From Candidatus Woykebacteria bacterium (GTDB lineage Bacteria > Patescibacteriota > Microgenomatia > Woykebacterales > RBG-16-39-9b): DNA of 64,000 bases. The position numbers and the translations under genes were made by a program. Every line of letters starts with the position of its first letter. Position 1 is the stretch's first letter. The notes beneath the pieces are model-generated. The model was not told where the DNA came from. It ran no database searches and saw nothing but the letters and a program-made list of their open reading frames with translations. Where the stretch lies: assembly GCA_040876345.1 (NCBI GenBank), contig JBBDPM010000006.1, positions 392,547 to 456,546 of the forward strand. Direction: 5' to 3'. Below, piece by piece: positions 2,777 to 12,246 of this stretch.

Positions 2777-3146
2777 CTTTAAGAGCCTCCCTAAGAGTGT
2801 CCAAACTCAGAAACGCACATTTTAATCTTGCCGGTGTTGGATTAATACCAATTAATTCAAGTATATCACTCGAGTTTACCTTTTCGACTTCATCGATCGA
2901 CTTTCCAACTACATATTCAGCCAATAGTGATGCGGAAGCCTGCGAAATTGCGCATCCATTACCACTAAACATGGCTTCTTCGATTTTCGATGTTGGATGT
3001 TGTATTTTCAATTGAAGTTTGATCTCGTCTCCACAAAGGGGGTTGACTAACCTCGCTTCAAGATCAGGTCGCTCAATCTCCCCCCGATTTTTTGGGTTTT
3101 TAGCGACTTCTAAAATAGCCTGTCGGTAGAGCTGATCTTCGATCAT
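2754..3146 (-). CDS. sufU: SufU-type Fe-S cluster scaffold (IscU/NifU-like)
   Basis: NPLCGD, GCAIS, RLKCA cysteine ligand motifs; downstream of sufS in suf operon. Confidence 0.8.
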   Translation of the reverse strand: MIEDQLYRQAILEVAKNPKNRGEIERPDLEARLVNPLCGDEIKLQLKIQHPTSKIEEAMFSGNGCAISQASASLLAEYVVGKSIDEVEKVNSSDILELIGINPTPARLKCAFLSLDTLREALKDDAEGQG

Positions 3147-4438
3147 ACCTTAAATATTTTCTTCGCCTTTTCAATCGCAGGCGAGAGCTTATCAATCTCC
3201 TCTTTCGTGTTATAAATATAAAAGCTAACTCTGGCAGCGGCTGGAATTCCAAGTACTTTCATGAGAGGCTGGGCACAATGATGACCGGAACGGACTGCAA
3301 TTCCAACTGAGTCCAAAATTGATGCAAGATCATGCGGGTGAATCGCCACTTCACCTTTGTCGTCAACGATATTAAATGAAATAACCCCAGCTCGTTTTTC
3401 TGTATCAGTTGGACCGTAAACAACAAGGTTCTTAACTTTTTCGAGCGTTTCTAATGCGTAGGCTGTGAGTTCTTTTTCATGATAGCGCACGTTTTTCATT
3501 CCAAGAGACGATAAATAATCCACTGCTGCTCCAAGCCCAACAGCACCGGCAATATCTGGAGTCCCAGCTTCAAATTTCCAAGGAACATAATTCCAGCTTG
3601 ATTTCTCAAGTGTCACTTCCATAATCATTTCTCCACCACTCAAGAACGGCTCCATTTCCTCAAGAAGTTCTTTTTTAGCATAAAGAACCCCAATTCCAGT
3701 TGGTCCAAGCATCTTATGTCCAGTAAAAACGTAGAAGTCTGGATTTATATTTTGAATAGAGACCGGCATATGCGGTACGGACTGTGCGCCATCTATCAGC
3801 ACCTTCGGTGCTGGTGATGAGTTTCTAGTTGAGAGTTCATGGATTTGCCTTATTATTTCTTTGACTGGGTTAACTGTTCCCAACACATTCGACACGTGGG
3901 TCACAGCCACCAATTTTGTCCGTTTGGAAATTTGAGATTTGAAATTTGTAATTTGTAATTGACCGAGTTCGTCTACTGGGATGAACTCTAATTTGGCTCC
4001 AATCTCTTTCGCCAAAATTTGCCACGGGACCAAGTTCGAATGGTGTTCCATCTCTGTCAAAAGTATTTCATCTCCTTTTTTTATATTTTTCCGGCCCCAA
4101 CTGTAGGCAACTAAATTAATCGCCTCGGTAGCGTTGCGGACGAAGACGATTTGGCGAGAGTCCCCAGCGTTTACAAAATTAGCAACCTTTTTTCTTGCTG
4201 ACTCATAAGCCTCTGTTGCTTCTTCAGAAAGTTTGTGAACCCCACGGTGAACATTGGCATTATAATTTTGGTAATAATCGGAAATTACGTCTATTACTTG
4301 ATGCGGTTTTTGGCTTGTAGCAGCGTTGTCAAAATACACCAAAGGCTTGCCGTAAACCTCCCTTTTAAGTATTGGAAAATCCTTGCGTATTTTTTCCACG
4401 TCTAGCGCGGTCTTTTGTTTAGTTAACATCTCTTTCAT
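3143..4438 (-). CDS. sufS: cysteine desulfurase SufS (class V aminotransferase)
   Basis: 431 aa; HKMLGPTGIG PLP-lysine region and RSGHHCAQP active-site Cys loop. Confidence 0.9.
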   Translation of the reverse strand: MKEMLTKQKTALDVEKIRKDFPILKREVYGKPLVYFDNAATSQKPHQVIDVISDYYQNYNANVHRGVHKLSEEATEAYESARKKVANFVNAGDSRQIVFVRNATEAINLVAYSWGRKNIKKGDEILLTEMEHHSNLVPWQILAKEIGAKLEFIPVDELGQLQITNFKSQISKRTKLVAVTHVSNVLGTVNPVKEIIRQIHELSTRNSSPAPKVLIDGAQSVPHMPVSIQNINPDFYVFTGHKMLGPTGIGVLYAKKELLEEMEPFLSGGEMIMEVTLEKSSWNYVPWKFEAGTPDIAGAVGLGAAVDYLSSLGMKNVRYHEKELTAYALETLEKVKNLVVYGPTDTEKRAGVISFNIVDDKGEVAIHPHDLASILDSVGIAVRSGHHCAQPLMKVLGIPAAARVSFYIYNTKEEIDKLSPAIEKAKKIFKV

Positions 4439-4818: not shown

Positions 4819-5805
4819 TTATTCTACGTATTTTATACCAATTGCGTAAACCCCACCACGTTTTATTCTCTGATCATAATTAGTAAATGAGTTGATTATT
4901 TTAATCGCCTCCCCAATATCTTTTGCCTTAGGGAAAACATTCACTAAACCCTCAGTCTTGAGTAAATCATCGATGTTACGGTAGTGCTTTATATAACGTA
5001 CTTCTATTTGGGAGCTGTCAATGAAACCAATCTCATCATTTCCGTAACTAAAGTTAATAAGGTCTCCCTCCTTCATGTTTTGGTATTGATGCGAACCGAA
5101 GGGCGCCCGCAGCACGATATTAACCAAACCCGCCTTGAGTAAATTAAAGTTATCGTGATTCGTATTGAGAAGCCACTCTCGTTTACCGTCAATCACCCGG
5201 TAGACATCCCAAACCCAGTGAGAAAATGGTGAAAACTCCACAATTAGTTCCTGGCCTTCTTGAAAGCTGCGGAAGCGGATGTCTGAATAATTGTTCTCAT
5301 CGATTTTAAAGCCTCGAATGCTCCACTCTACCTTGGTCATTTTAGATTCAGTTTTCACTTCAAGTTTTACCAGCCGTCCTTGTACACTAAACACGGGGGA
5401 ACGTCTATCAAGATCAAACTCCCTGTCACCTGTATCTTTATATTTATGTTCAAGAACAACTTTTTCCCAATTCTCTAACTCACGCTGGATTAGCTTCTCT
5501 TTATACCCACCTGTAAGTAAGCTTTCCACCCTGTCTACTGCCGCTATTCTAGCAACCCGTCGCTTATAAGCTACCAATACCCACCAACCTCCAATGATAG
5601 GGGAGGCCAATCCAACTACATAACTGCCAACACTAACCAAAAACTGCGCGCCAAATTCGGGAGAACTTGGCACCTGAAACTGCCCTTCTCGGTAAGCTGA
5701 ATAAAGGGCTGCAACCTGCTCCTTAGAAAAAAGATACAAAATAAAAAAGAAAAGAGAAAAAACTAATAACGGAACGAAAACCTCAACTAATTTTTTAGCT
5801 CGCAT
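4819..5805 (-). CDS. hypothetical membrane protein (2 N-terminal TM helices + ~240-aa domain) embedded in suf operon
   Basis: long ORF, hydrophobic N-terminus, no recognisable motif. Confidence 0.4.
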   Translation of the reverse strand: MRAKKLVEVFVPLLVFSLFFFILYLFSKEQVAALYSAYREGQFQVPSSPEFGAQFLVSVGSYVVGLASPIIGGWWVLVAYKRRVARIAAVDRVESLLTGGYKEKLIQRELENWEKVVLEHKYKDTGDREFDLDRRSPVFSVQGRLVKLEVKTESKMTKVEWSIRGFKIDENNYSDIRFRSFQEGQELIVEFSPFSHWVWDVYRVIDGKREWLLNTNHDNFNLLKAGLVNIVLRAPFGSHQYQNMKEGDLINFSYGNDEIGFIDSSQIEVRYIKHYRNIDDLLKTEGLVNVFPKAKDIGEAIKIINSFTNYDQRIKRGGVYAIGIKYVE

Positions 5806-5808
5806 TAT

Positions 5809-6411
5809 TTAAATATTAAACTCTTTATAAAGAAAATTTTCTAGAGAGGCCTTTTCCCGAGTTGGAAGTTGCTCTAAAATCCCACTAAAGTATCCTTGCA
5901 CTATCAGCTTTTTTGCTTCTCTTTGATCAATTCCTCTACTCATAAGGTAAAACGTCTGTTCTTCGTCGACTGGTCCGACTGTTGAGGCATGACCAGCTTT
6001 TACTTCATTTTCATCTATCTCTAGAGATGGGATTGCTTCGGCTTTGGCGGTGTCTGATAACAATAACGCGTCTTCGCGAAAGAAAGTATTGGTATTTTTT
6101 GCCCCTTTTTTAATGGAGACTAGGCCGTAAAATCCGCCAACTGAGCGGTCTGTCAAAACTGATTTGATCAAAGTGTCACTTGTAGTATCTGGTGCTACAT
6201 GATCTATATCCACGTTTACTTTAACCTCATCTTTATTCGCCAAAAAGAAAGCCCCAATGACCGACAATTTCGCTCCCCGACCGATGAGTTTTGCTTTAAC
6301 GTTGATTTCGACTGGACCAGTTGTCTCCTTAGAGGCTGATCTTGTCGAAGCCCACACCAAAGGCAAAACCTTTTCCTGGTTTTCTTTTAAAGTGAGGTTG
6401 ATCTTTTTCAT
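5809..6411 (-). CDS. sufD: Fe-S cluster assembly protein SufD, short (200 aa, C-terminal-half-like)
   Basis: C-terminal EQTFYLMSRGIDQREAKKLIVQGF signature shared with SufB/SufD; about half normal SufD length. Confidence 0.65.
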   Translation of the reverse strand: MKKINLTLKENQEKVLPLVWASTRSASKETTGPVEINVKAKLIGRGAKLSVIGAFFLANKDEVKVNVDIDHVAPDTTSDTLIKSVLTDRSVGGFYGLVSIKKGAKNTNTFFREDALLLSDTAKAEAIPSLEIDENEVKAGHASTVGPVDEEQTFYLMSRGIDQREAKKLIVQGYFSGILEQLPTREKASLENFLYKEFNI

Positions 6412-6413
6412 AT

Positions 6414-6803
6414 CTACATTGGAATGTCCCTAACCCTAAATTTATGGGAGTCTATAACAACAATTTTCCTAATAAAATCAGAATCTTTGTATTTCTCTAA
6501 AAATTTATCAATTATTTTAAATAAATTTTGGGGAATTTTTCCTTTGTGACGAATAATAATTAAACCGTATTTAGTGGTCCCACTTATGTTCCTTAGCCTA
6601 GTAAACCCAAGATCAAAGGTTAGTATAACTCGTTCAAGTCTATGTGCCTCTTCAGTAATTATGTTATCTGGAGATCTGGATAATCCTAGCTCCTTTACAG
6701 AAACTAAATCTACGTCTTTAGTTCTTAAGTATTCATTAATTAGGTGGGGGACATTTTCATCGGAGATCAGCTTCATGTACCTTCTCTTTATCGATAAACT
6801 CAA
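6414..6803 (-). CDS. DUF5615-like (PIN-like) putative toxin partner of DUF433
   Basis: 129 aa immediately downstream/overlapping DUF433 gene; the usual DUF433-DUF5615 pair arrangement. Confidence 0.5.
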   Translation of the reverse strand: MSLSIKRRYMKLISDENVPHLINEYLRTKDVDLVSVKELGLSRSPDNIITEEAHRLERVILTFDLGFTRLRNISGTTKYGLIIIRHKGKIPQNLFKIIDKFLEKYKDSDFIRKIVVIDSHKFRVRDIPM

Positions 6804-7041
6804 TATACTCGTGCTCTAAAGCTTTTGCGCTGTAGCGAAGGCAAGCATTAATATCCTTTTCTGTCAAATTGGGGTAATAATCTCGAAGGATTTCCTCGGT
6901 AGTAACACCAGTAGCAAGCAGGTCAATAATCATGTAAACAGGTATTCTGGTGCCAGCAATTACCGGTTTACCTACCATTATTTCATGATTAACAATTATT
7001 TTACCAATATCTTTTGGATCACGGTTTTTCATAGCAGCCAA
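6757..7041 (-). CDS. DUF433 domain protein (putative antitoxin-like)
   Basis: MVGKPVIAGTRIPVYMIIDLL core is the DUF433 signature; 94 aa. Confidence 0.7.
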   Translation of the reverse strand: MAAMKNRDPKDIGKIIVNHEIMVGKPVIAGTRIPVYMIIDLLATGVTTEEILRDYYPNLTEKDINACLRYSAKALEHEYIEFIDKEKVHEADLR

Positions 7042-7622
7042 ATTTTAACACAGGCATCTCATCAATTCAATTGGAGTGGGTAAGTCAAAAAAAGAATAGC
7101 GCCGGGGTTGATCTCTGGAAACCCGCGCCCCGAAAGCCGCCACTTGCGACACCGATAGAACGCTAAAGCGTTCTGCAACCACTTTGTGGGCTAAGGACTC
7201 GAACCTACTATTCAGCTCTCCTCTATCTAGCCCAACGGTCCTCTATCTCCAAGTAGTTTTTGGTCTGCTCCTTTCTAGGTGGCCTAAGCTTCGTGTAGGA
7301 AAACCATAGAGAAAAGGTCGGTCCGTGCACCCAGCAGAGGGGCTTGAAAAATGTACCATTTACCAAACCCCTCTTGGCAAGGCGCCCCATACCATTTCCT
7401 TCGACGTAGACGAGCTGATCCTCACGCCACCGAAACTGGCCAAGAAAATTCCTCAAAGCGTCGGGCATGGTAGTTTCCCTCCTTACTTCTACCATCTAAG
7501 GCATCAATACGTTATTGGAACCGAGGTACTAACAGAAAAAACGGGGATAATCAATAGTATAAGTTTATTAACCTACAGAGCCGATCATTTCCAATTGTAT
7601 CAGGCTAGTTCAAGTATAAAAA

Positions 7623-7847
7623 CTATTTTATTTTCATAAATTCTTCTACTGAAAGCCCGGTTTGGTTGATAATTGATCTCAAAGTACCAGTTTTTACATC
7701 CTTTGCGTGATATGGCACCGGGATGCGACTCTTACTACTCGGATTTAGCATTATATAATGGCTCCCAGAAATGTGATCAACAATATAGCCAATTTTCTTA
7801 AGTTTTGATATAACTTCCCGGGGTTTGAGAGGAGAGAGTTTTGCCAT
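7623..7847 (-). CDS. hicA: HicA family mRNA interferase toxin
   Basis: 74 aa, PLKPREVISKLKKIGY..HISGSH pattern typical of HicA/YcfA; overlaps hicB by 1 nt. Confidence 0.75.
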   Translation of the reverse strand: MAKLSPLKPREVISKLKKIGYIVDHISGSHYIMLNPSSKSRIPVPYHAKDVKTGTLRSIINQTGLSVEEFMKIK

Positions 7848-8071
7848 CAGACGGAGACGGAAACCTTTTCAATTTCACCAGTCTCCTGAGGAACAGCTTC
7901 ACCGTGTTTCTTTAAAGAAGCAATATAACCTTCAATAGCATCTTTAATCATTTGCAAGGCTTCTTCTTTTGTGCCACCTTGAGTGGTACATCCTGGCAGC
8001 GCTGGTGCGGAAACAACATAGCCACCTTCTTCGGCCTTTTGCAGATAAACCGTATAGTTGAGAACTTTCAT
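7847..8071 (-). CDS. hicB: HicB family antitoxin (UPF0150)
   Basis: 74 aa, YTVYLQKAEEGGYVVSAPALPGCTTQGGTKEEAL typical HicB N-domain. Confidence 0.7.
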   Translation of the reverse strand: MKVLNYTVYLQKAEEGGYVVSAPALPGCTTQGGTKEEALQMIKDAIEGYIASLKKHGEAVPQETGEIEKVSVSV

Positions 8072-8262
8072 AAAAGCAATTATAGCACTTCTATTAAAGC
8101 TTGTCCTGAGCGAAGTCGAAGGAAAAAGTGCGCGGGCTGGACGGTTTAAGAAGGTTTGATCTGCATTTTACGTGCGCTGGGTTTAGTTCGAGGAAGTATT
8201 CGAGGGTGAGTTCTTTGACAATAGGTTCGGTCCCACTTCGCCAAGGCTACGAGGGATTTCGC

Positions 8263-9672
8263 CTATCCAACCGCTCCTACCATTTCTAGTTGAATTAATC
8301 TGTTTAGTTCGAGCGCATACTCTAAAGGTAGTTCCCGTACGATAGGCTCAATAAATCCATTGACAATCATGGAAGTGGCGTCGTTTTCGGAAAGACCACG
8401 AGACATTAAATAGAACAACTGATCTTCCCCAATTTTGGAAACAGAGGCTTCATGACCAACTTGCACATTTTCTTCATCTATTTGCATCGTTGGGTAAGTA
8501 TCGGATCTGGATTTATTGTCGAGGATCAAGGCGTCACAACGCACGTTAGATTTGGCACCCTTGGCGCCTTTTATCACTTTGAGCAACCCGCGGTAAGAAG
8601 AGCGGCCGCCGTCTTTCGAGATTGATTTAGAAATTATCTGAGACGAGGTGTAAGGCGCCAGATGAAAGGCCTTTCCACCTACATCCTGATGCTGGCCGGC
8701 TCCAGCAAAGGCGATGGAGAGTATCTCACCCCTGGCTCCCCTACCTTTCAAATAAACAGATGGGTATTTCATACTTATTTGCGATCCAAGATTGCCATCA
8801 ATCCACTCCATGGTAGCATCTTCTTCCACCATTGCCCGCTTTGTTACGAGATTGTAAACATTTTTACTCCAATTCTGAATTGTGGTGTAGCGACAGCGGG
8901 CCCCTTTTTTGACAAAAATTTCAACAACTGCAGCGTGCAGCGAATCAGTAGTGTAAATCGGCGCGGTACAGCCTTCGACGTAATGGACTTGGGCTCCTTC
9001 GTCAACGATAATTAGTGTCCGCTCAAACTGCCCCATTTGGGCCGCGTTTATGCGGAAGTAGGCTTGGAGGGGAACATCGACTTTGACGCCAGGTGGTACG
9101 TAAATGAAGGATCCACCAGACCACACAGCGCTATTTAGCGCGGCCAGTTTATTATCGGCCGGCGGAATCGCCCGGGCAAAATATTCTTTGAAATACTCTG
9201 GGTATTTTTTCAGAGCCGTATCGGTATCTAAAAAAATTACCCCTTTTTTCTCAAGATCGGCTCGTAAAGAATGGTAGATCACTTCACTGTCATACTGGGC
9301 CCCAACTCCACCAAGGTAGTTTTTTTCAGCCTCCGGAATACCGATTGCATCATATGTTTCGCGGATCTCGACAGGTAAATCTTCCCAACTTTTGCTCTGC
9401 TTTTCTGTCGGCTTTAGATAGTAATAAATCTCATCATAATTAATTCTCGAAAGATCGGCCCCCCATTTAGGCTGCTTTTTGGACTTGAAAATCTCATAGG
9501 CTCTGAGCCGAAACTCCCGCATCCAATCAGGCTCTTCTTTTTGATAAGAAATTTCTCCAACGATAGATTCGTCAAGACCTTTGCGGGTCTTAAAAACATA
9601 CTTTTCCGGCTTCGAGAACCCGTACTTCTCTCGATAGCCTTCGTTAACCTCAATTGTCGCTGTTTTTGACAT
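8263..9672 (-). CDS. sufB: Fe-S cluster assembly protein SufB
   Basis: 469 aa, full-length similarity pattern to SufB incl. C-terminal [11 protein letters not shown]. Confidence 0.9.
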
Positions 9673-9681
9673 AATTAATTC

Positions 9682-10440
9682 TTATAGTTCGTAGGAACGC
9701 AGGGCGCGAAGCGATCTATTCTCAATTCTAGCGTAGCCTTTATCTTCAATCTCTTCGGCCAATTTATGATCTCCGCTTTTCACCACCTTACCATCTACCA
9801 AAATGTGCACAAAATCAGGCTGAATATATTTCAAAATTCTTTGGTAATGAGTGATCAGTAAAATTCCAATTTTTGGCCCCGAGGTCTTTTTTATTCCTTG
9901 AGCAACCAGTTTAAGTGCGTCAACGTCGAGTCCAGAGTCCGTCTCGTCAAGCACAGCATATCTAGGCTCCAAAACGGATAGCTGAAGCACTTCCATTTTC
10001 TTTTTCTCGCCTCCGGAAAAGCCGTCATTAATTCCCCGAGAAGCAAAAGATTCGTCAATCTTGAGCTCGCTCATTTTACCTTTCAAGCTTTTTATATATT
10101 CGGCGGTATTAACGTTGCCCTTTAGATTTTTCAGGGAAGTTCGCAAAAGATTGGCTGCTGATACACCGGGAACGGCCACTGGGTATTGCATGGCGAGAAA
10201 CAAACCGGCCTTCGCTCTTTTGTCTGGAGTGAGGCTGGTTATATCTTTCCCATCGAGTTTAATGGATCCCGCTGTAATTTGGTAACGTGGGTGACCCATA
10301 AGAGCAAGCGATAGAGAACTTTTACCCGAGCCATTGGGACCCATAAGAGCGTGAATTTCCCCAGGCTTAATTTTCAAAGAAACACCTTTGAGAATTTTTT
10401 TACGGTCTGTAGAAACATGAAGGTTTTTAATCTCTAACAT
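9682..10440 (-). CDS. sufC: Fe-S cluster assembly ATPase SufC
   Basis: GPNGSGKSSL Walker A, ABC signature, 252 aa, heads suf operon. Confidence 0.9.
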   Translation of the reverse strand: MLEIKNLHVSTDRKKILKGVSLKIKPGEIHALMGPNGSGKSSLSLALMGHPRYQITAGSIKLDGKDITSLTPDKRAKAGLFLAMQYPVAVPGVSAANLLRTSLKNLKGNVNTAEYIKSLKGKMSELKIDESFASRGINDGFSGGEKKKMEVLQLSVLEPRYAVLDETDSGLDVDALKLVAQGIKKTSGPKIGILLITHYQRILKYIQPDFVHILVDGKVVKSGDHKLAEEIEDKGYARIENRSLRALRSYEL

Positions 10441-10556
10441 TTGGGCCCAAGTTTAGCACATGATTATGGAAGAATCTAGATGAGTAGCGAAATAAGTGTG
10501 GCGGAGAGACAGCTCGAAAGAGATGTCCCTCCACAGATGGTTGTTGTAAGTGTTGG

Positions 10557-11273
10557 TCAGATGATCCCGCGCTGCCACCCCAAAACCGCCGAATGGACTC
10601 GGTTCTTCGCACCTAACTTCCGGTTTATCACCCTAAAGTGTGTTCGAACCGTGTGTTCGGAGATGCATAATGTATCAGCGATCATTCTGTTGGTCTTGCC
10701 TTCTCTCAGTTGTTGAAGTACCTCGATCTCACGAGGCGTCAACTCCTCTTCAACACCGCCGGCGCCGTTGCTGGCAGACTCTAGCGCGAGACGAACGGCA
10801 AGAGGTTTGGACAATACTGTCCTACCTGCCAATGCATCACTGAATGCGGCGATGAAACCCTGAGTATCGAATGACTCATCGATCACTCCAGCAACACCCG
10901 CTTGAAGCGCTTTGCGTGCCATGGAATCTTCCACGGACGTGATCGGGAGGTAGAGTAGTTTCGCCTCAGGATAGAACCCCTGAAGTTCATCGACTCTACC
11001 TTGAACGTCATTCCCCTTAACTGAGAAGAGAACAAGGTCGAACTTATACCTCTTCTCCTTTTCAGGAAGTGATTCCAGGCGCACCTCGATCGATTGCTTC
11101 TGCGATATGATGAGAGCCACGATTGCCTCTTCCAGGAGCTCGCTTCCCAACGATACTAGCATTCGGACTGTCATTCTTCGAACCTCCTTGTTCCTCTGAA
11201 CACTGAATCGGCTTCCGTCGATCTTCCTTGACCTTAAGCTTACAACCAGGCTGGATACTAATATTAAATTCAC
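10557..11273 (-). CDS. LuxR/FixJ-family transcriptional regulator (C-terminal HTH; N-terminal receiver-like domain)
   Basis: LTPREIEVLQQLREGKTNRMIADTLCISEHTVRTHFRVINRKLG = LuxR HTH; GC-rich; real start may be the internal Met near 11174. Confidence 0.7.
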   Translation of the reverse strand: MNLILVSSLVVSLRSRKIDGSRFSVQRNKEVRRMTVRMLVSLGSELLEEAIVALIISQKQSIEVRLESLPEKEKRYKFDLVLFSVKGNDVQGRVDELQGFYPEAKLLYLPITSVEDSMARKALQAGVAGVIDESFDTQGFIAAFSDALAGRTVLSKPLAVRLALESASNGAGGVEEELTPREIEVLQQLREGKTNRMIADTLCISEHTVRTHFRVINRKLGAKNRVHSAVLGWQRGII

Positions 11274-11382
11274 AAATTGTCAACAAAATCTAAGAAAATT
11301 ATGATGGGTAGGAAAATAGTTTAGTGCGGGCGGAGGCTGAATGAGCAAGCTCACTAGCCTCTCCCCCGCACACTGTCGCGCC

Positions 11383-12045
11383 TCAGATGGCAGGCGGTCG
11401 GCAGAGGGGCGGGATCTCGAAGCCCTTATCGATCCGGTCCACGATTGTGTACGTGACCGTGAATTCCGAGAGTTCTCCGTACCCGATCATCCCCACGCCA
11501 TTGAACGTCCCAGCTGCCGATGCGAAAGCAAGGTGCTTACGCATCAAGTTATGGTAGCCGAAGTCGCCGTCTTCGTAGCAGTCCTTCGTGTCGAAAGCGA
11601 CTGGGTTGCCATCGGCCGTTAGCTCGACCCTGAGGTCGTAGCTGAAGTTGCCGACATAGACAGCGTCCTGGCCTCGCGGCAGGTACACCTCGGCTGTCAC
11701 CAACGAGCTGAGGTTGTATGTCGCCAACCCAGCTCCTGCCTTCACGTCCACGAAGGCGTAGCCAGTGGTGTACCAGAAGTCACGGCACCGCCAGAACTTG
11801 CACCGGTACGTCCGGGTTTCCACCTTCACGTTCGGGTAGAACTCGCCGGTGTCCGGGTCTTGGTACGACGGTTCGTAGACGCTCACGTTCACGTCTGTGT
11901 GAAAGTTGCGCCCGTGGTCGATGGTCATAGCCGCAAACACGGAGGACCCTTCGACCGTCTCCTGCGTGACGTTGGCCGACACGAGAGTCGGAACCAGCGC
12001 CAGCAGAGCTACCATGGCGATCACGATTCCTAGTAACCGTTTCAC
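11383..12045 (-). CDS. secreted hypothetical protein (signal peptide)
   Basis: N-terminal MKRLLGIVIAMVALLALVPTLVSA signal; GC-rich (~60%) coding-like composition. Confidence 0.5.
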   Translation of the reverse strand: MKRLLGIVIAMVALLALVPTLVSANVTQETVEGSSVFAAMTIDHGRNFHTDVNVSVYEPSYQDPDTGEFYPNVKVETRTYRCKFWRCRDFWYTTGYAFVDVKAGAGLATYNLSSLVTAEVYLPRGQDAVYVGNFSYDLRVELTADGNPVAFDTKDCYEDGDFGYHNLMRKHLAFASAAGTFNGVGMIGYGELSEFTVTYTIVDRIDKGFEIPPLCRPPAI

Positions 12046-12246
12046 TATGCACCTCCAATGTGCTTTTCCGCTAAACGTTTGTTAGCGCGAATTAGCTATA
12101 AATATAGCATATAATAGCCTAAAAGTCAACACTATAAGACGTTATGTATCTTCAAACCTTCCGCAGCAGCTCGGTTTTCAGGTACTATCACGTCTTGCGT
12201 TAGCCATCTTAATGGCTAACTAAGATCTTTAATTTGTAATTTTTAT

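Follow-up and report, generated by a model that had tools for sequence, protein, structure and literature searches.

A conserved half-size SufD and a variable sufB-sufD junction carrying two toxin-antitoxin-like modules in a Woykebacteria SUF cluster

The conserved or essential residues of Escherichia coli SufD are P347, H360, Y374, R378, G379, A385, and F393 (PMC6006206). His360 is essential and is the proposed cluster ligand, Pro347 is located at the dimer interface, and the C-terminal helical domain, with Tyr374, Arg378, Gly379, Ala385, and Phe393, binds SufC (PMC6006206). Among toxin-antitoxin (TA) systems relevant to this locus, the PIN-COG2442 pair VapBC10 of Synechocystis has been tested experimentally and is only distantly related to the pair described below (PMC3834315), while DUF433-PIN_10/COG4634 pairs are regarded as toxin-antitoxin systems by family-level prediction (PMC5499597).

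The SUF cluster analyzed here belongs to a MAG of Woykebacteria (CPR/Patescibacteria) and is contained in a 64,000-nucleotide stretch of DNA, referred to as the window. All features described are on the minus strand. The cluster begins with sufC (positions 9682 to 10440; an ABC ATPase of 252 aa, Pfam ABC_tran E = 9.3e-21) and a full-length sufB (8263 to 9672; 469 aa, with SufBD_N and SUFBD_core domains and 733 bits to TIGR01980 versus a cutoff of 346), followed by hicB-hicA, about 580 nt of gene-poor DNA, a DUF433-DUF5615 pair, and a 200-aa sufD (5809 to 6411). It continues past sufD, giving the overall order sufC-sufB ... sufD-Rieske-sufS-sufU. The grouping sufC-sufB ... sufD ... sufS-sufU, cysteine desulfurase included, was found in the window and in all relatives, and sufC heads the cluster in all relatives compared. 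Between sufD and the Rieske gene lies a gene of 328 aa (4819 to 5805) that had no Pfam or NCBIfam match, and its slot is filled by different genes in relatives.

The original prediction described a SUF operon interrupted by a toxin-antitoxin island, and ORFs together with Pfam and NCBIfam matches bore out all of its genes and their shared orientation. It placed sufD one codon after the DUF5615 stop; the exact distance is 2 nt (TAG-AT-ATG). Its estimate of about 770 nt of ORF-free sequence was accurate in size, corresponding to gene-poor stretches at 8262 to 8072 (191 nt) and 7622 to 7042 (581 nt), but not in emptiness, as these contain an 81-aa ORF and remnants of both the 3' end of sufB and the region upstream of sufD.

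Such an arrangement could in principle be a chimera of metagenome assembly, given that the source is a MAG and that spacer composition is uneven, with GC ranging from 0.31 to 0.51. However, the same gene order was present in contigs of one NCBI assembly and one Logan assembly (contigs of 45 to 586 kb, identical order), making misassembly unlikely, and homologous junction features were recovered from independent samples (loci L003, L007, and L033). We consider a chimera hardly credible.

The explanation we favor, with a probability of roughly 80%, is that SufD is natively half size, that the sufB-sufD junction is variable and has received repeated insertions, and that in the window it holds two selfish TA modules plus decayed DNA, leaving sufB and sufD intact, with expression of sufD then likely driven from a TA module. 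The ancestral arrangement would have been sufB immediately before, or overlapping, a short sufD. In the Woykebacteria lineage, this junction would have become a variable spot where unrelated DNA was repeatedly inserted and rearranged, the window cargo being a selfish type II hicBA and a DUF433/PIN-like pair. The decayed material consists of a sufB 3' tail in a displaced copy, duplicated segments from upstream of sufD, and an orphan ORF. The half-size SufD lacks the N-terminal helical domain and about four beta-helix turns; what it retains corresponds to the portion of E. coli SufD that makes the interface with SufB, contains the essential His, and binds SufC.

Homologs of the 200-aa SufD numbered 343 at E <= 1e-5, and the best 120 of these were all 174 to 206 aa long, with query coverage of 90 to 100%. 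The window protein is complete and aligned end to end with homologs of this length, including a conserved N terminus (MKNIxLxLKENQEKxLPLVW); 22 of the homologs aligned from Met1. In Levybacteria and in part of the Woykebacteria, short sufD adjoins or overlaps sufB, examples being L008 (4 nt apart), L014 (1-nt overlap), L020, a closed Levybacteria chromosome in which the overlap is ATGA, and about ten further Levybacteria loci where the two genes abut. Because a 200-residue SufD is normal and conserved in this group, the locus is largely ordinary.

These data refute the original proposal that an insertion removed the 5' half of sufD. A TA island inserted into a full-length sufD, deleting its 5' half and leaving a crippled or neofunctionalized fragment, would be consistent with a SUFBD_core match (E = 1.2e-46) that covers only profile positions 95 to 231 of 232, with alignment to residues 257 to 401 only of E. 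coli SufD, and with a sufD that begins 2 nt beyond a toxin stop. Yet the same length and N terminus recur in hundreds of homologs, some of them abutting sufB without any insertion. When a profile made from 70 full-length SufD/SufB proteins was run against window positions 5700 to 8300, it matched the short sufD only, all other segments in six frames scoring <=0.8 bits (E > 1). The lowest E in a tblastn search with the N-terminal halves of 70 SufD proteins was 0.023, which is not significant for 70 queries, and an N-terminal relic in the spacer was rejected on both searches. The 328-aa downstream protein was also rejected as the missing half, having no SUFBD signal and a position that varies between relatives. 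Deletion by the island is thus extremely improbable. Alignment to full-length SufD did show the expected absence of the N-terminal part, in that the N-terminal helical domain and the full nine-turn helix of the architecture of about 350 to 450 aa are missing; this absence is common to the whole short-SufD clade and not a loss through insertion.

The short protein scored 168.3 bits against TIGR01981, under the cutoff of 222. Its AF2 model (pLDDT 80) consists of a 10-strand beta-helix of about 5 turns plus three C-terminal helices (residues 150 to 197), and superimposes on E. coli SufD with a TM-score of 0.83 to 0.84 over about 195 residues. By alignment, the counterparts of P347, H360, Y374, R378, G379, A385, and F393 are P128, H141, Y155, R159, G160, A166, and Y174. 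P128 and H141 are invariant in the family alignment; among 22 relatives, the same holds for Y155 and G160 and very nearly for A166, and R159 and Y174 show conservative variation. From this conservation and from synteny, we infer that the short SufD probably works with SufB and SufC. No account of a short SufD from Patescibacteria/CPR was found in the literature searched, and a conserved half-size SufD in CPR, automatically annotated as "SufD family," appears to be undescribed.

Across about 25 loci, the interval from the sufB stop to the sufD start varied from an overlap to 3437 nt. Junction cargo in relatives included QueF, an acyltransferase, Ham1, Cys-rich orphans, and small membrane proteins, and one relative lineage (L033/L034) has hicBA at the same junction. 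DUF433-DUF5615 was absent from the sufB-sufD junctions of all relatives examined, and relatives with sufB and short sufD directly adjacent support the view that the TA genes entered the SUF cluster by insertion in this particular lineage. Sequence comparison indicates that the TA modules are mobile, with hicBA at the same junction in L033/L034 and in another context in L035/L036.

The gene-poor DNA is a mosaic. Immediately after the sufB stop is a 32-nt spacer, GCGAAATCCCTCGTAGCCTTGGCGAAGTGGGA (8231 to 8262), which L003/L032, L007, and L033 retain in the same position and which is missing from L005, L008, L009, and others. It is followed by the left part of a second, displaced sufB 3' tail (8181 to 8230, reading ..EPIVKELTLEYFLELN), whose translation aligned to the sufB C terminus and to the intact second copies of L003 and L007. 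The right part of this tail (7568 to 7614, ..LEL.LIQLEMIGSVG then stop) has 82 to 85% nucleotide identity to the sufB 3' ends of L005, L008, L009, and L025. The second copy is split by hicBA, which is bracketed by an overlap of about 9 to 12 nt, CTYGAACTA, between the two parts. The two tail copies of L007 show 25 differences over 89 nt and only 3 over 29 aa, meaning that each evolved under coding constraint and in a separate allele. A GC3 comparison to tell the resident tail copy from the imported one was too noisy at 30 codons.

Other pieces resemble DNA native to the region upstream of sufD. A partial copy at 8150 to 8179, CAGCGCACGTAAAATGCAGATCAAACCTTC, matches L033 upstream of hicB at 24 of 30 positions and aligns with L007 upstream of sufD. 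A longer homolog of the noncoding sufD upstream region, at 7103 to 7210, is collinear with L033 positions 5449 to 5530, matches L007 about 110 to 140 nt upstream of sufD (88% over 34 nt), and includes a 24-mer resembling a tRNA T-arm, TAGTAGGTTCGAGTCCTTAGCCCA. Overlapping it at 7084 to 7131 is a terminator-like hairpin followed by a T-run, UAUUCUUUUUUU, which formed a stem-loop in both MFE and centroid folds and was not flagged by a strict terminator scan. Between this longer homolog and the right sufB tail lies orf81 (7223 to 7468), which encodes 81 aa and has the ribosome-binding site AAGGAGG; GC here is 0.50, compared with about 0.41 nearby. It matched itself alone among 5.8 billion proteins and had no Pfam, NCBIfam, or PADLOC match; orf81 was rejected as a real conserved gene and is an orphan or possibly spurious.

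A structured RNA or tRNA in the GC-rich segment at 7042 to 7622 was also rejected. Rfam at E <= 1 gave 0 matches in the gene-poor stretch of the window and 0 in four relatives, ARAGORN predicted no tRNA in the gene-poor stretch, and folding was no better than that of shuffled sequences (z-scores of +0.19, for the sufD-upstream homolog region, and -0.54).

The tail duplications raise the possibility that site-specific integrative elements, one or several, which target the sufB 3' end and supply a replacement tail, left the spacer behind as a decayed footprint, the TA genes being surviving addiction cargo. Duplication of the last ~30 sufB codons after the stop in the window, L003, L007, and L033 is in keeping with this scenario, as are the allelic divergence of the L007 tails under coding constraint, the short CTYGAACTA repeat around hicBA, and retention of the T-arm-like 24-mer in both the window and L033. 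What argues against it is the lack of any integrase, excisionase, or transposase in about 12 spacers examined, and the geometry in L003 and L007, where tail copies are only 32 nt apart and the cargo is beyond the second copy, outside the tail pair. Spacer ORFs had no integrase or transposase domains, and an internal-repeat search for repeats flanking the whole island returned only short repeats at chance level. The T-arm-like 24-mer is single copy in the window and, among 34 loci, is present elsewhere only in L033; the degenerate 19-mer core of the motif had no exact match in viral contigs, and a role as a tRNA-derived attachment site was given low weight. An origin from integrative elements is unlikely.

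Of the two modules, hicBA is the one with a relative at the same junction. The hicB antitoxin gene (7847 to 8071; short form, 74 aa, HicB_lk_antitox E = 1.9e-11, 44.6 bits versus a cutoff of 27) and the intact hicA toxin gene (7623 to 7847; 74 aa, HicA_toxin E = 5.3e-18, 65.3 bits versus a cutoff of 27) are adjacent and co-oriented, with a 1-nt overlap, and HicA is predicted to act as a toxin. HicB matches only the N-terminal profile positions 1 to 64 of 123 and therefore has no recognizable DNA-binding domain. Amino acid identity of the pair to the L033/L034 copy is 82 to 86% (82% for hicB to L033). The next closest pair, in L035/L036 (78 to 81%; 78% for hicB), has no suf neighbors, and DNA similarity to it ends at the hicBA coding region. 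A promoter-like site ahead of hicB (8079 to 8107, AGGACA-17-TATAAT with TG) scored 10/12 in a consensus scan, and its -10 element and spacing to the ATG are common to the hicBA relatives in L033, L035, and L036. In L033, hicA is frameshifted and its stop overlaps the sufD ATG.

The second module has a promoter-like site ahead of it at 7042 to 7070 (TTGAAT-17-TAAAAT with TG; consensus scan 9/12) and comprises a DUF433 (COG2442) antitoxin-like gene (6757 to 7032; 91 aa, Pfam E = 2.7e-22, 78.8 bits versus a cutoff of 23.6) and a DUF5615 PIN-like toxin-like gene of the Mut7-C group (6414 to 6776; 120 aa, Pfam E = 3.8e-18, 65.8 bits versus a cutoff of 23.8), the two overlapping by 20 nt. The DUF433 protein weakly matches PDB 2GA1, a DUF433 protein. 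The DUF5615 protein matched no solved structure by sequence, had a subthreshold PIN_10 match (19.3 bits versus a cutoff of 26.2), and yielded only one other relative, at 55% identity. Its designation as a toxin would follow from family-level prediction (PMC5499597) and a distant tested pair (PMC3834315). In the literature searched, no paper named DUF5615 together with DUF433, and no tested member of this exact pairing was found. PADLOC gave no anti-phage defense match among the island proteins, and a defense annotation was rejected.

The position of the second module bears on how sufD may be expressed. In relatives, a -10 box, TGATACAAT, is usually located about 12 nt ahead of the sufD ATG; the window has none. 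Absence of this native element, together with the hairpin before the DUF433 promoter-like site, would leave sufD and later genes transcribed from the DUF433-DUF5615 promoter, and translation of sufD may be coupled to the toxin gene. The promoters, terminator, and coupling are all putative, being inferred from consensus-level features.

It is decidedly unlikely that the TA modules have been co-opted, with TA autoregulation or toxin activation tuning expression of sufD and downstream suf genes, and thereby Fe-S assembly, under stress. A toxin gene ends at the sufD start in two lineages (DUF5615 here and hicA in L033), and the absent -10 element and the upstream hairpin would fit such control. 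However, the hicA frameshift in L033 suggests decay rather than selection, most relatives carry unrelated cargo at this place and lack TA genes, and insertion at the edge of an essential gene would by itself be expected to give tight spacing. Quite unlikely as well is a reading in which the half-size SufD is the standard partner of full-length SufB and SufC in Woykebacteria and Levybacteria, defining the least of SufD that scaffold function requires, and in at least two lineages selfish TA operons have landed precisely in the gap separating the promoter region of sufD from its start codon. If true, a TA promoter would drive SufD synthesis, with coupling to toxin translation; the TA module would be hard to lose, and SufD dosage would be tied to TA regulation.

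A TA island that decapitated an essential Fe-S gene would have been striking; that is not what happened, and three more modest points remain, namely a half-size SufD, a variable junction, and toxin genes at the sufD start. The half-size SufD may represent a natural experiment suggesting that SufD can do without its N-terminal half, and would be useful for dissecting the SufBC2D mechanism. In the streamlined genomes of CPR, the sufB-sufD junction is a variable spot of small size and clear boundaries, and its duplicated sufB tails from different alleles could help the study of DNA acquisition in CPR. Finally, in two cases the end of a toxin gene meets the start codon of an essential gene, a simple model for the possible entrenchment of selfish modules.

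Compared with described systems, the hicBA module resembles type II HicAB systems in its typical small size, its adjacent genes overlapping by 1 nt, and Pfam matches above cutoff for both families, and differs in the order hicB then hicA and in the short 74-aa form of HicB. The second module resembles PIN-COG2442 VapBC-like modules in having a DUF433 gene upstream of, and overlapping, a small PIN-like gene. VapC10 has a canonical PIN domain, whereas the toxin-like protein of the window is a DUF5615 member of a reduced, Mut7-C-like PIN group. Integration of e14 and phage 21 at E. coli icd supplies a replacement 3' tail, and horizontal-transfer hot spots are flanked by conserved core genes. The junction is similar to both in its variable cargo between conserved genes and in duplication of the 3' end of the upstream gene, but has no recombinase, and its duplicated tails are 32 nt apart with the cargo beyond the second copy.

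As a scaffold, the short SufD invites comparison with the SmsCB or minimal SUF system (SufB*-SufC) of archaea and anaerobes (PDB 9H78; NF052511), likewise a reduced SUF-type scaffold of the SufBD superfamily. The short SufD itself matched the SmsB model weakly (56 bits) and MJ0034 over residues 113 to 175 only. Identity as an SMS system was rejected because the window, unlike SmsCB, encodes a separate full-length SufB, which falls under the SmsB cutoff (290 bits versus 650), and a distinct SufD-like partner. The E. coli SufD of SufBC2D (PDB 5AWF, 2ZU0, and 1VH4) is 423 aa long, compared with 200 aa in the window, where about four of nine turns are missing. The two proteins share a fold over the last five beta-helix turns and the helical domain at the C terminus. 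P347 and H360, the interface and ligand residues, have aligned counterparts in the window protein, as do the conserved C-terminal residues, and the window sufD is likewise encoded with sufC, sufB, sufS, and sufU.

All genes of the SUF region in the window lie on the minus strand, with sufC (10440..9682) followed by a full-length sufB (9672..8263; TIGR01980, 733 bits). Downstream come hicB (8071..7847; HicB_lk_antitox, E = 1.9e-11) and hicA (7847..7623; HicA_toxin, E = 5.3e-18), a gene-poor stretch (7622..7042), a DUF433 gene (7032..6757; E = 2.7e-22), and a DUF5615 gene (6776..6414; E = 3.8e-18). Only 2 nt separate the DUF5615 stop from the ATG of a 200-aa sufD (6411..5809), which matches SUFBD_core (E = 1.2e-46) over profile positions 95 to 231 of 232 only. 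The remaining genes encode, in order, a 328-aa protein, a Rieske protein, SufS, SufU, and a ferredoxin. Family assignments of the toxin-antitoxin (TA) genes and sufD are strong, contigs from NCBI and Logan assemblies repeat this gene order, and an identical SufD protein is annotated in the Candidatus Woykebacteria metagenome-assembled genome (MAG) GCA_040903525.1, bearing out the original prediction of two TA pairs between sufB and a half-length sufD. Just upstream of sufC, positions 10500 to 12100 have a GC content of 0.52 to 0.61, versus ~0.42 elsewhere, and look like foreign DNA; a GerE/LuxR-type regulator (10557..11273, minus) and a 220-aa protein without a family match, whose N terminus has a hydrophobic, signal peptide-like segment (11383..12045, minus), are encoded here.

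This short SufD is a complete, native protein. Among 5.8 billion proteins searched, 343 were homologs (E ≤ 1e-5), and the best 120 of these were all 174 to 206 aa, with 90 to 100% query coverage. In an alignment of 22 short homologs, the proteins aligned from Met1 to the end, sharing a conserved N terminus (MKNIxLxLKENQEKxLPLVW) and 67 invariant columns. Distances from the sufB stop to the sufD start were surveyed by tblastn with the window SufB and SufD as queries, in 26 loci from a scan of one genome per species, and in 13 loci the two genes overlapped or were no more than 61 nt apart. These included two Woykebacteria-like loci, one with a 4-nt gap (L008) and one with a TAATG overlap (L014), as well as a closed Levybacteria chromosome (L020) with a compact overlapping operon of sufC, sufB, sufD (189 aa), sufS, and sufU. 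When a profile built from 70 full-length SufD/SufB proteins (380 to 480 aa) was compared with all six-frame segments of window positions 5700 to 9700, the only matches were sufB, at 379 bits, and the short sufD, at 226 bits over profile positions 254 to 405 of 421; all other segments scored 0.8 bits or less. The proposal that an insertion removed the 5′ half of sufD is therefore ruled out by the homolog lengths, the shared N terminus, the relatives lacking an insertion, and the absence of any other SufD/SufB segment in these positions. End-to-end alignment with a short clade and a short sufD beside an uninterrupted sufB are also the two findings that the original prediction had named as refuting it.

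By sequence alignment, the short SufD corresponds to residues 257 to 401 of the 423-residue Escherichia coli SufD. AlphaFold2 modeling from the family alignment (pLDDT 80, pTM 0.77) gave ten strands, or about five turns of the helix, with three helices after them. Superposition of this model on E. coli SufD from the crystal structures of SufBC2D and SufC2D2 yielded TM-scores of 0.83 to 0.84 over ~195 residues. E. coli SufD has Pro347 and His360, the latter essential, at its dimer interface and is conserved at Tyr374, Arg378, Gly379, Ala385, and Phe393 (PMC6006206). The aligned counterparts are P128, H141, Y155, R159, G160, A166, and Y174, most of them invariant or nearly so in the family, with conservative variation at R159 and Y174. 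Direct comparison also places a Glu (FREDAL) where the window SufB has the SufB-specific Cys (VRCDAL), which fits SufD and not SufB. Together, the alignment, model, and family conservation indicate that the interface, His ligand, and SufC-binding domain are kept; what the protein lacks is the N-terminal domain along with about four turns of the helix. Among the top 150 matches in a 50%-identity representative library, short proteins (~166 to 250 aa) were mixed with full-length ones (340 to 470 aa), in which the matching part was the last 150 residues.

The distance between sufB and sufD is highly variable among Woykebacteria-like genomes, ranging from 183 nt (L011), 421 nt (L016), 484 nt (L012), 538 nt (L010), 627 nt (L033), and 926 nt (L005) to 1,093 nt (L007), about 1,300 nt (L003/L032), 1,370 nt (L009), 1,851 nt in the window, and 3,437 nt (L013). 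The cargo differs between genomes and is unrelated: a Ham1 dITPase in L010, QueF with an acyltransferase and Cys-rich orphan paralogs in L013, a Cys-rich orphan in L003, and small membrane proteins in L005 and L007. The Cys-rich (CxxC ... CxxC) orphans, found in these two relatives' spacers, form a family of 143 to 170 aa with sub-threshold Pfam matches only (L003:4902-5369; L013:1524-2036 and 2888-3319). A second junction that varies is the one separating sufD from the Rieske gene, which holds a 74-aa protein in L003, a 546-aa FAD oxidase in L005, a 182-aa protein in L033, and in the window the 328-aa membrane protein (4819-5805, minus), which had no match in Pfam, NCBIfam, or PADLOC. Two extra small genes between sufC and sufB in L033 (2712-3914), one with a weak match to 23S_rRNA_IVP (four-helix bundle), show that this junction too can take insertions, and the SUF cluster tolerates insertions at several junctions. 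Separately, sufB of a Levybacteria-like MAG (CAZIZQ010000017; L022:3379-4482) carries an in-frame insertion of 368 codons at residue 297, which encodes an intein containing a LAGLIDADG homing endonuclease (Intein_splicing, 90.6 bits; LAGLIDADG_3, 34.3 bits). Elsewhere in the window, a small GIY-YIG nuclease-domain gene (1360-1701, minus; 113 aa, E = 3.4e-14) between methyltransferase and pyridine nucleotide-disulfide oxidoreductase genes was not at the corresponding position in L003.

At this variable junction the TA genes are additions specific to the lineage, as the insertion proposal had held, and both flanking genes, sufB and sufD, are intact. At the same junction, L033/L034 carry a homologous hicB (82% aa identity) and a frameshifted hicA (85 to 87% aa identity over two frameshifted segments) whose stop overlaps the sufD ATG. 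Suf genes flanked 0 of 80 further hicBA loci in a metagenome scan; the closest of these, L035 and L036 (78 to 81% aa), lie in another context beside small TA-like pairs, and their DNA similarity to the window spans only hicB start to hicA stop, so that hicBA behaves as a mobile module. These two loci are flanked by ~25-nt direct repeats (L036:3443-3470 and 3980-4010; L035:~895-925) reading AAATTTGCTTTCTGAGGCAGGAAGA / AAAATTGCTTTCCAAGCCAGAAAAAAG, which may be cassette boundaries. DUF433-DUF5615 was found at no relative's sufB-sufD junction and had one detectable relative, at 55% identity. DUF433 is COG2442, the antitoxin partner of PIN toxins, with experimental validation for one COG2442-PIN pair, Synechocystis VapBC10 (PMC3834315). 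A TA system of DUF433 with reduced Mut7-C-like PIN proteins (PIN_10, COG4634) has been predicted (PMC5499597). The pairing of DUF433 with DUF5615 is a putative TA pair. PADLOC returned no defense-system match for any island protein.

The spacer between sufB and sufD has a composite anatomy. Directly past the sufB stop lie 32 nt (8262..8231) and then the final ~30 codons of sufB a second time, an arrangement also present in L003/L032, L007, and L033. The 32-nt segment (8231-8262 in the window) contains, judged by eye only, a short stem of lineage-specific sequence (CCTTC/GAAGG in L003, CCCCT/AGGGG in L033, CCC/GGG in the window) that may form a conserved hairpin. L007 has an intact second tail, and comparison with the first tail shows 25 differences in 89 nt but only 3 in 29 residues, so both copies evolved as coding sequence and two different sufB alleles were joined, as opposed to an in-place duplication followed by decay. 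The second tail of the window is broken into a left part (8230..8181), reading EPIVKELTLEYFLELN, and a right part (7614..7568), reading LEL.LIQLEMIGSVG-stop, with hicBA and its upstream DNA between the two parts, bracketed by a ~9- to 12-nt overlap (CTYGAACTA).

Beyond the right part, a stretch of ~50% GC holds an 81-aa open reading frame with a good ribosome-binding site and no homolog anywhere in the protein search. Positions 7210..7103 are collinear both with L033 sequence upstream of hicB and with L007 sequence 110 to 140 nt upstream of sufD, regions that align as homologous to each other over ~60 nt, indicating that this part of the window is a copy of the native region upstream of sufD; a second, partial copy lies ahead of hicB (8179..8150). 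Relatives that have a spacer share a conserved TTTCTGATACAAT at the end of the native region, which resembles an extended −10 box and sits ~12 nt ahead of the sufD ATG. The box is absent ahead of sufD in the window, replaced by a terminator-like hairpin with a T-run (7131..7084) and then a promoter-like site (7070..7042) preceding DUF433, DUF5615, and sufD. Structured RNA was ruled out for the gene-poor DNA (no Rfam matches, no tRNA call, folding z-scores near zero).

This layout suggests a model in which sufCB, perhaps with hicBA, would form one transcription unit ending at the hairpin near 7100, with transcription restarting at the DUF433 promoter-like site and sufD translation coupled to the toxin gene. 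The modules may persist as selfish addiction elements, since their place beside essential genes would make deletions removing them risky. The simplest account of their arrival would be recombination in which imported DNA was anchored by the conserved flanks, sufB and sufD. An integrative element that carried a replacement tail and has since decayed is a weaker explanation, given that there is no recombinase and that the two tail copies lie just 32 nt from each other.

The half-size SufD clade, for which a literature search found no paper describing a short SufD in CPR bacteria, is the most interesting by-product, alongside two cases in which a toxin gene ends at the sufD start codon. The TA modules themselves are ordinary members of known families, and the junction they occupy is an ordinary kind of variable spot.
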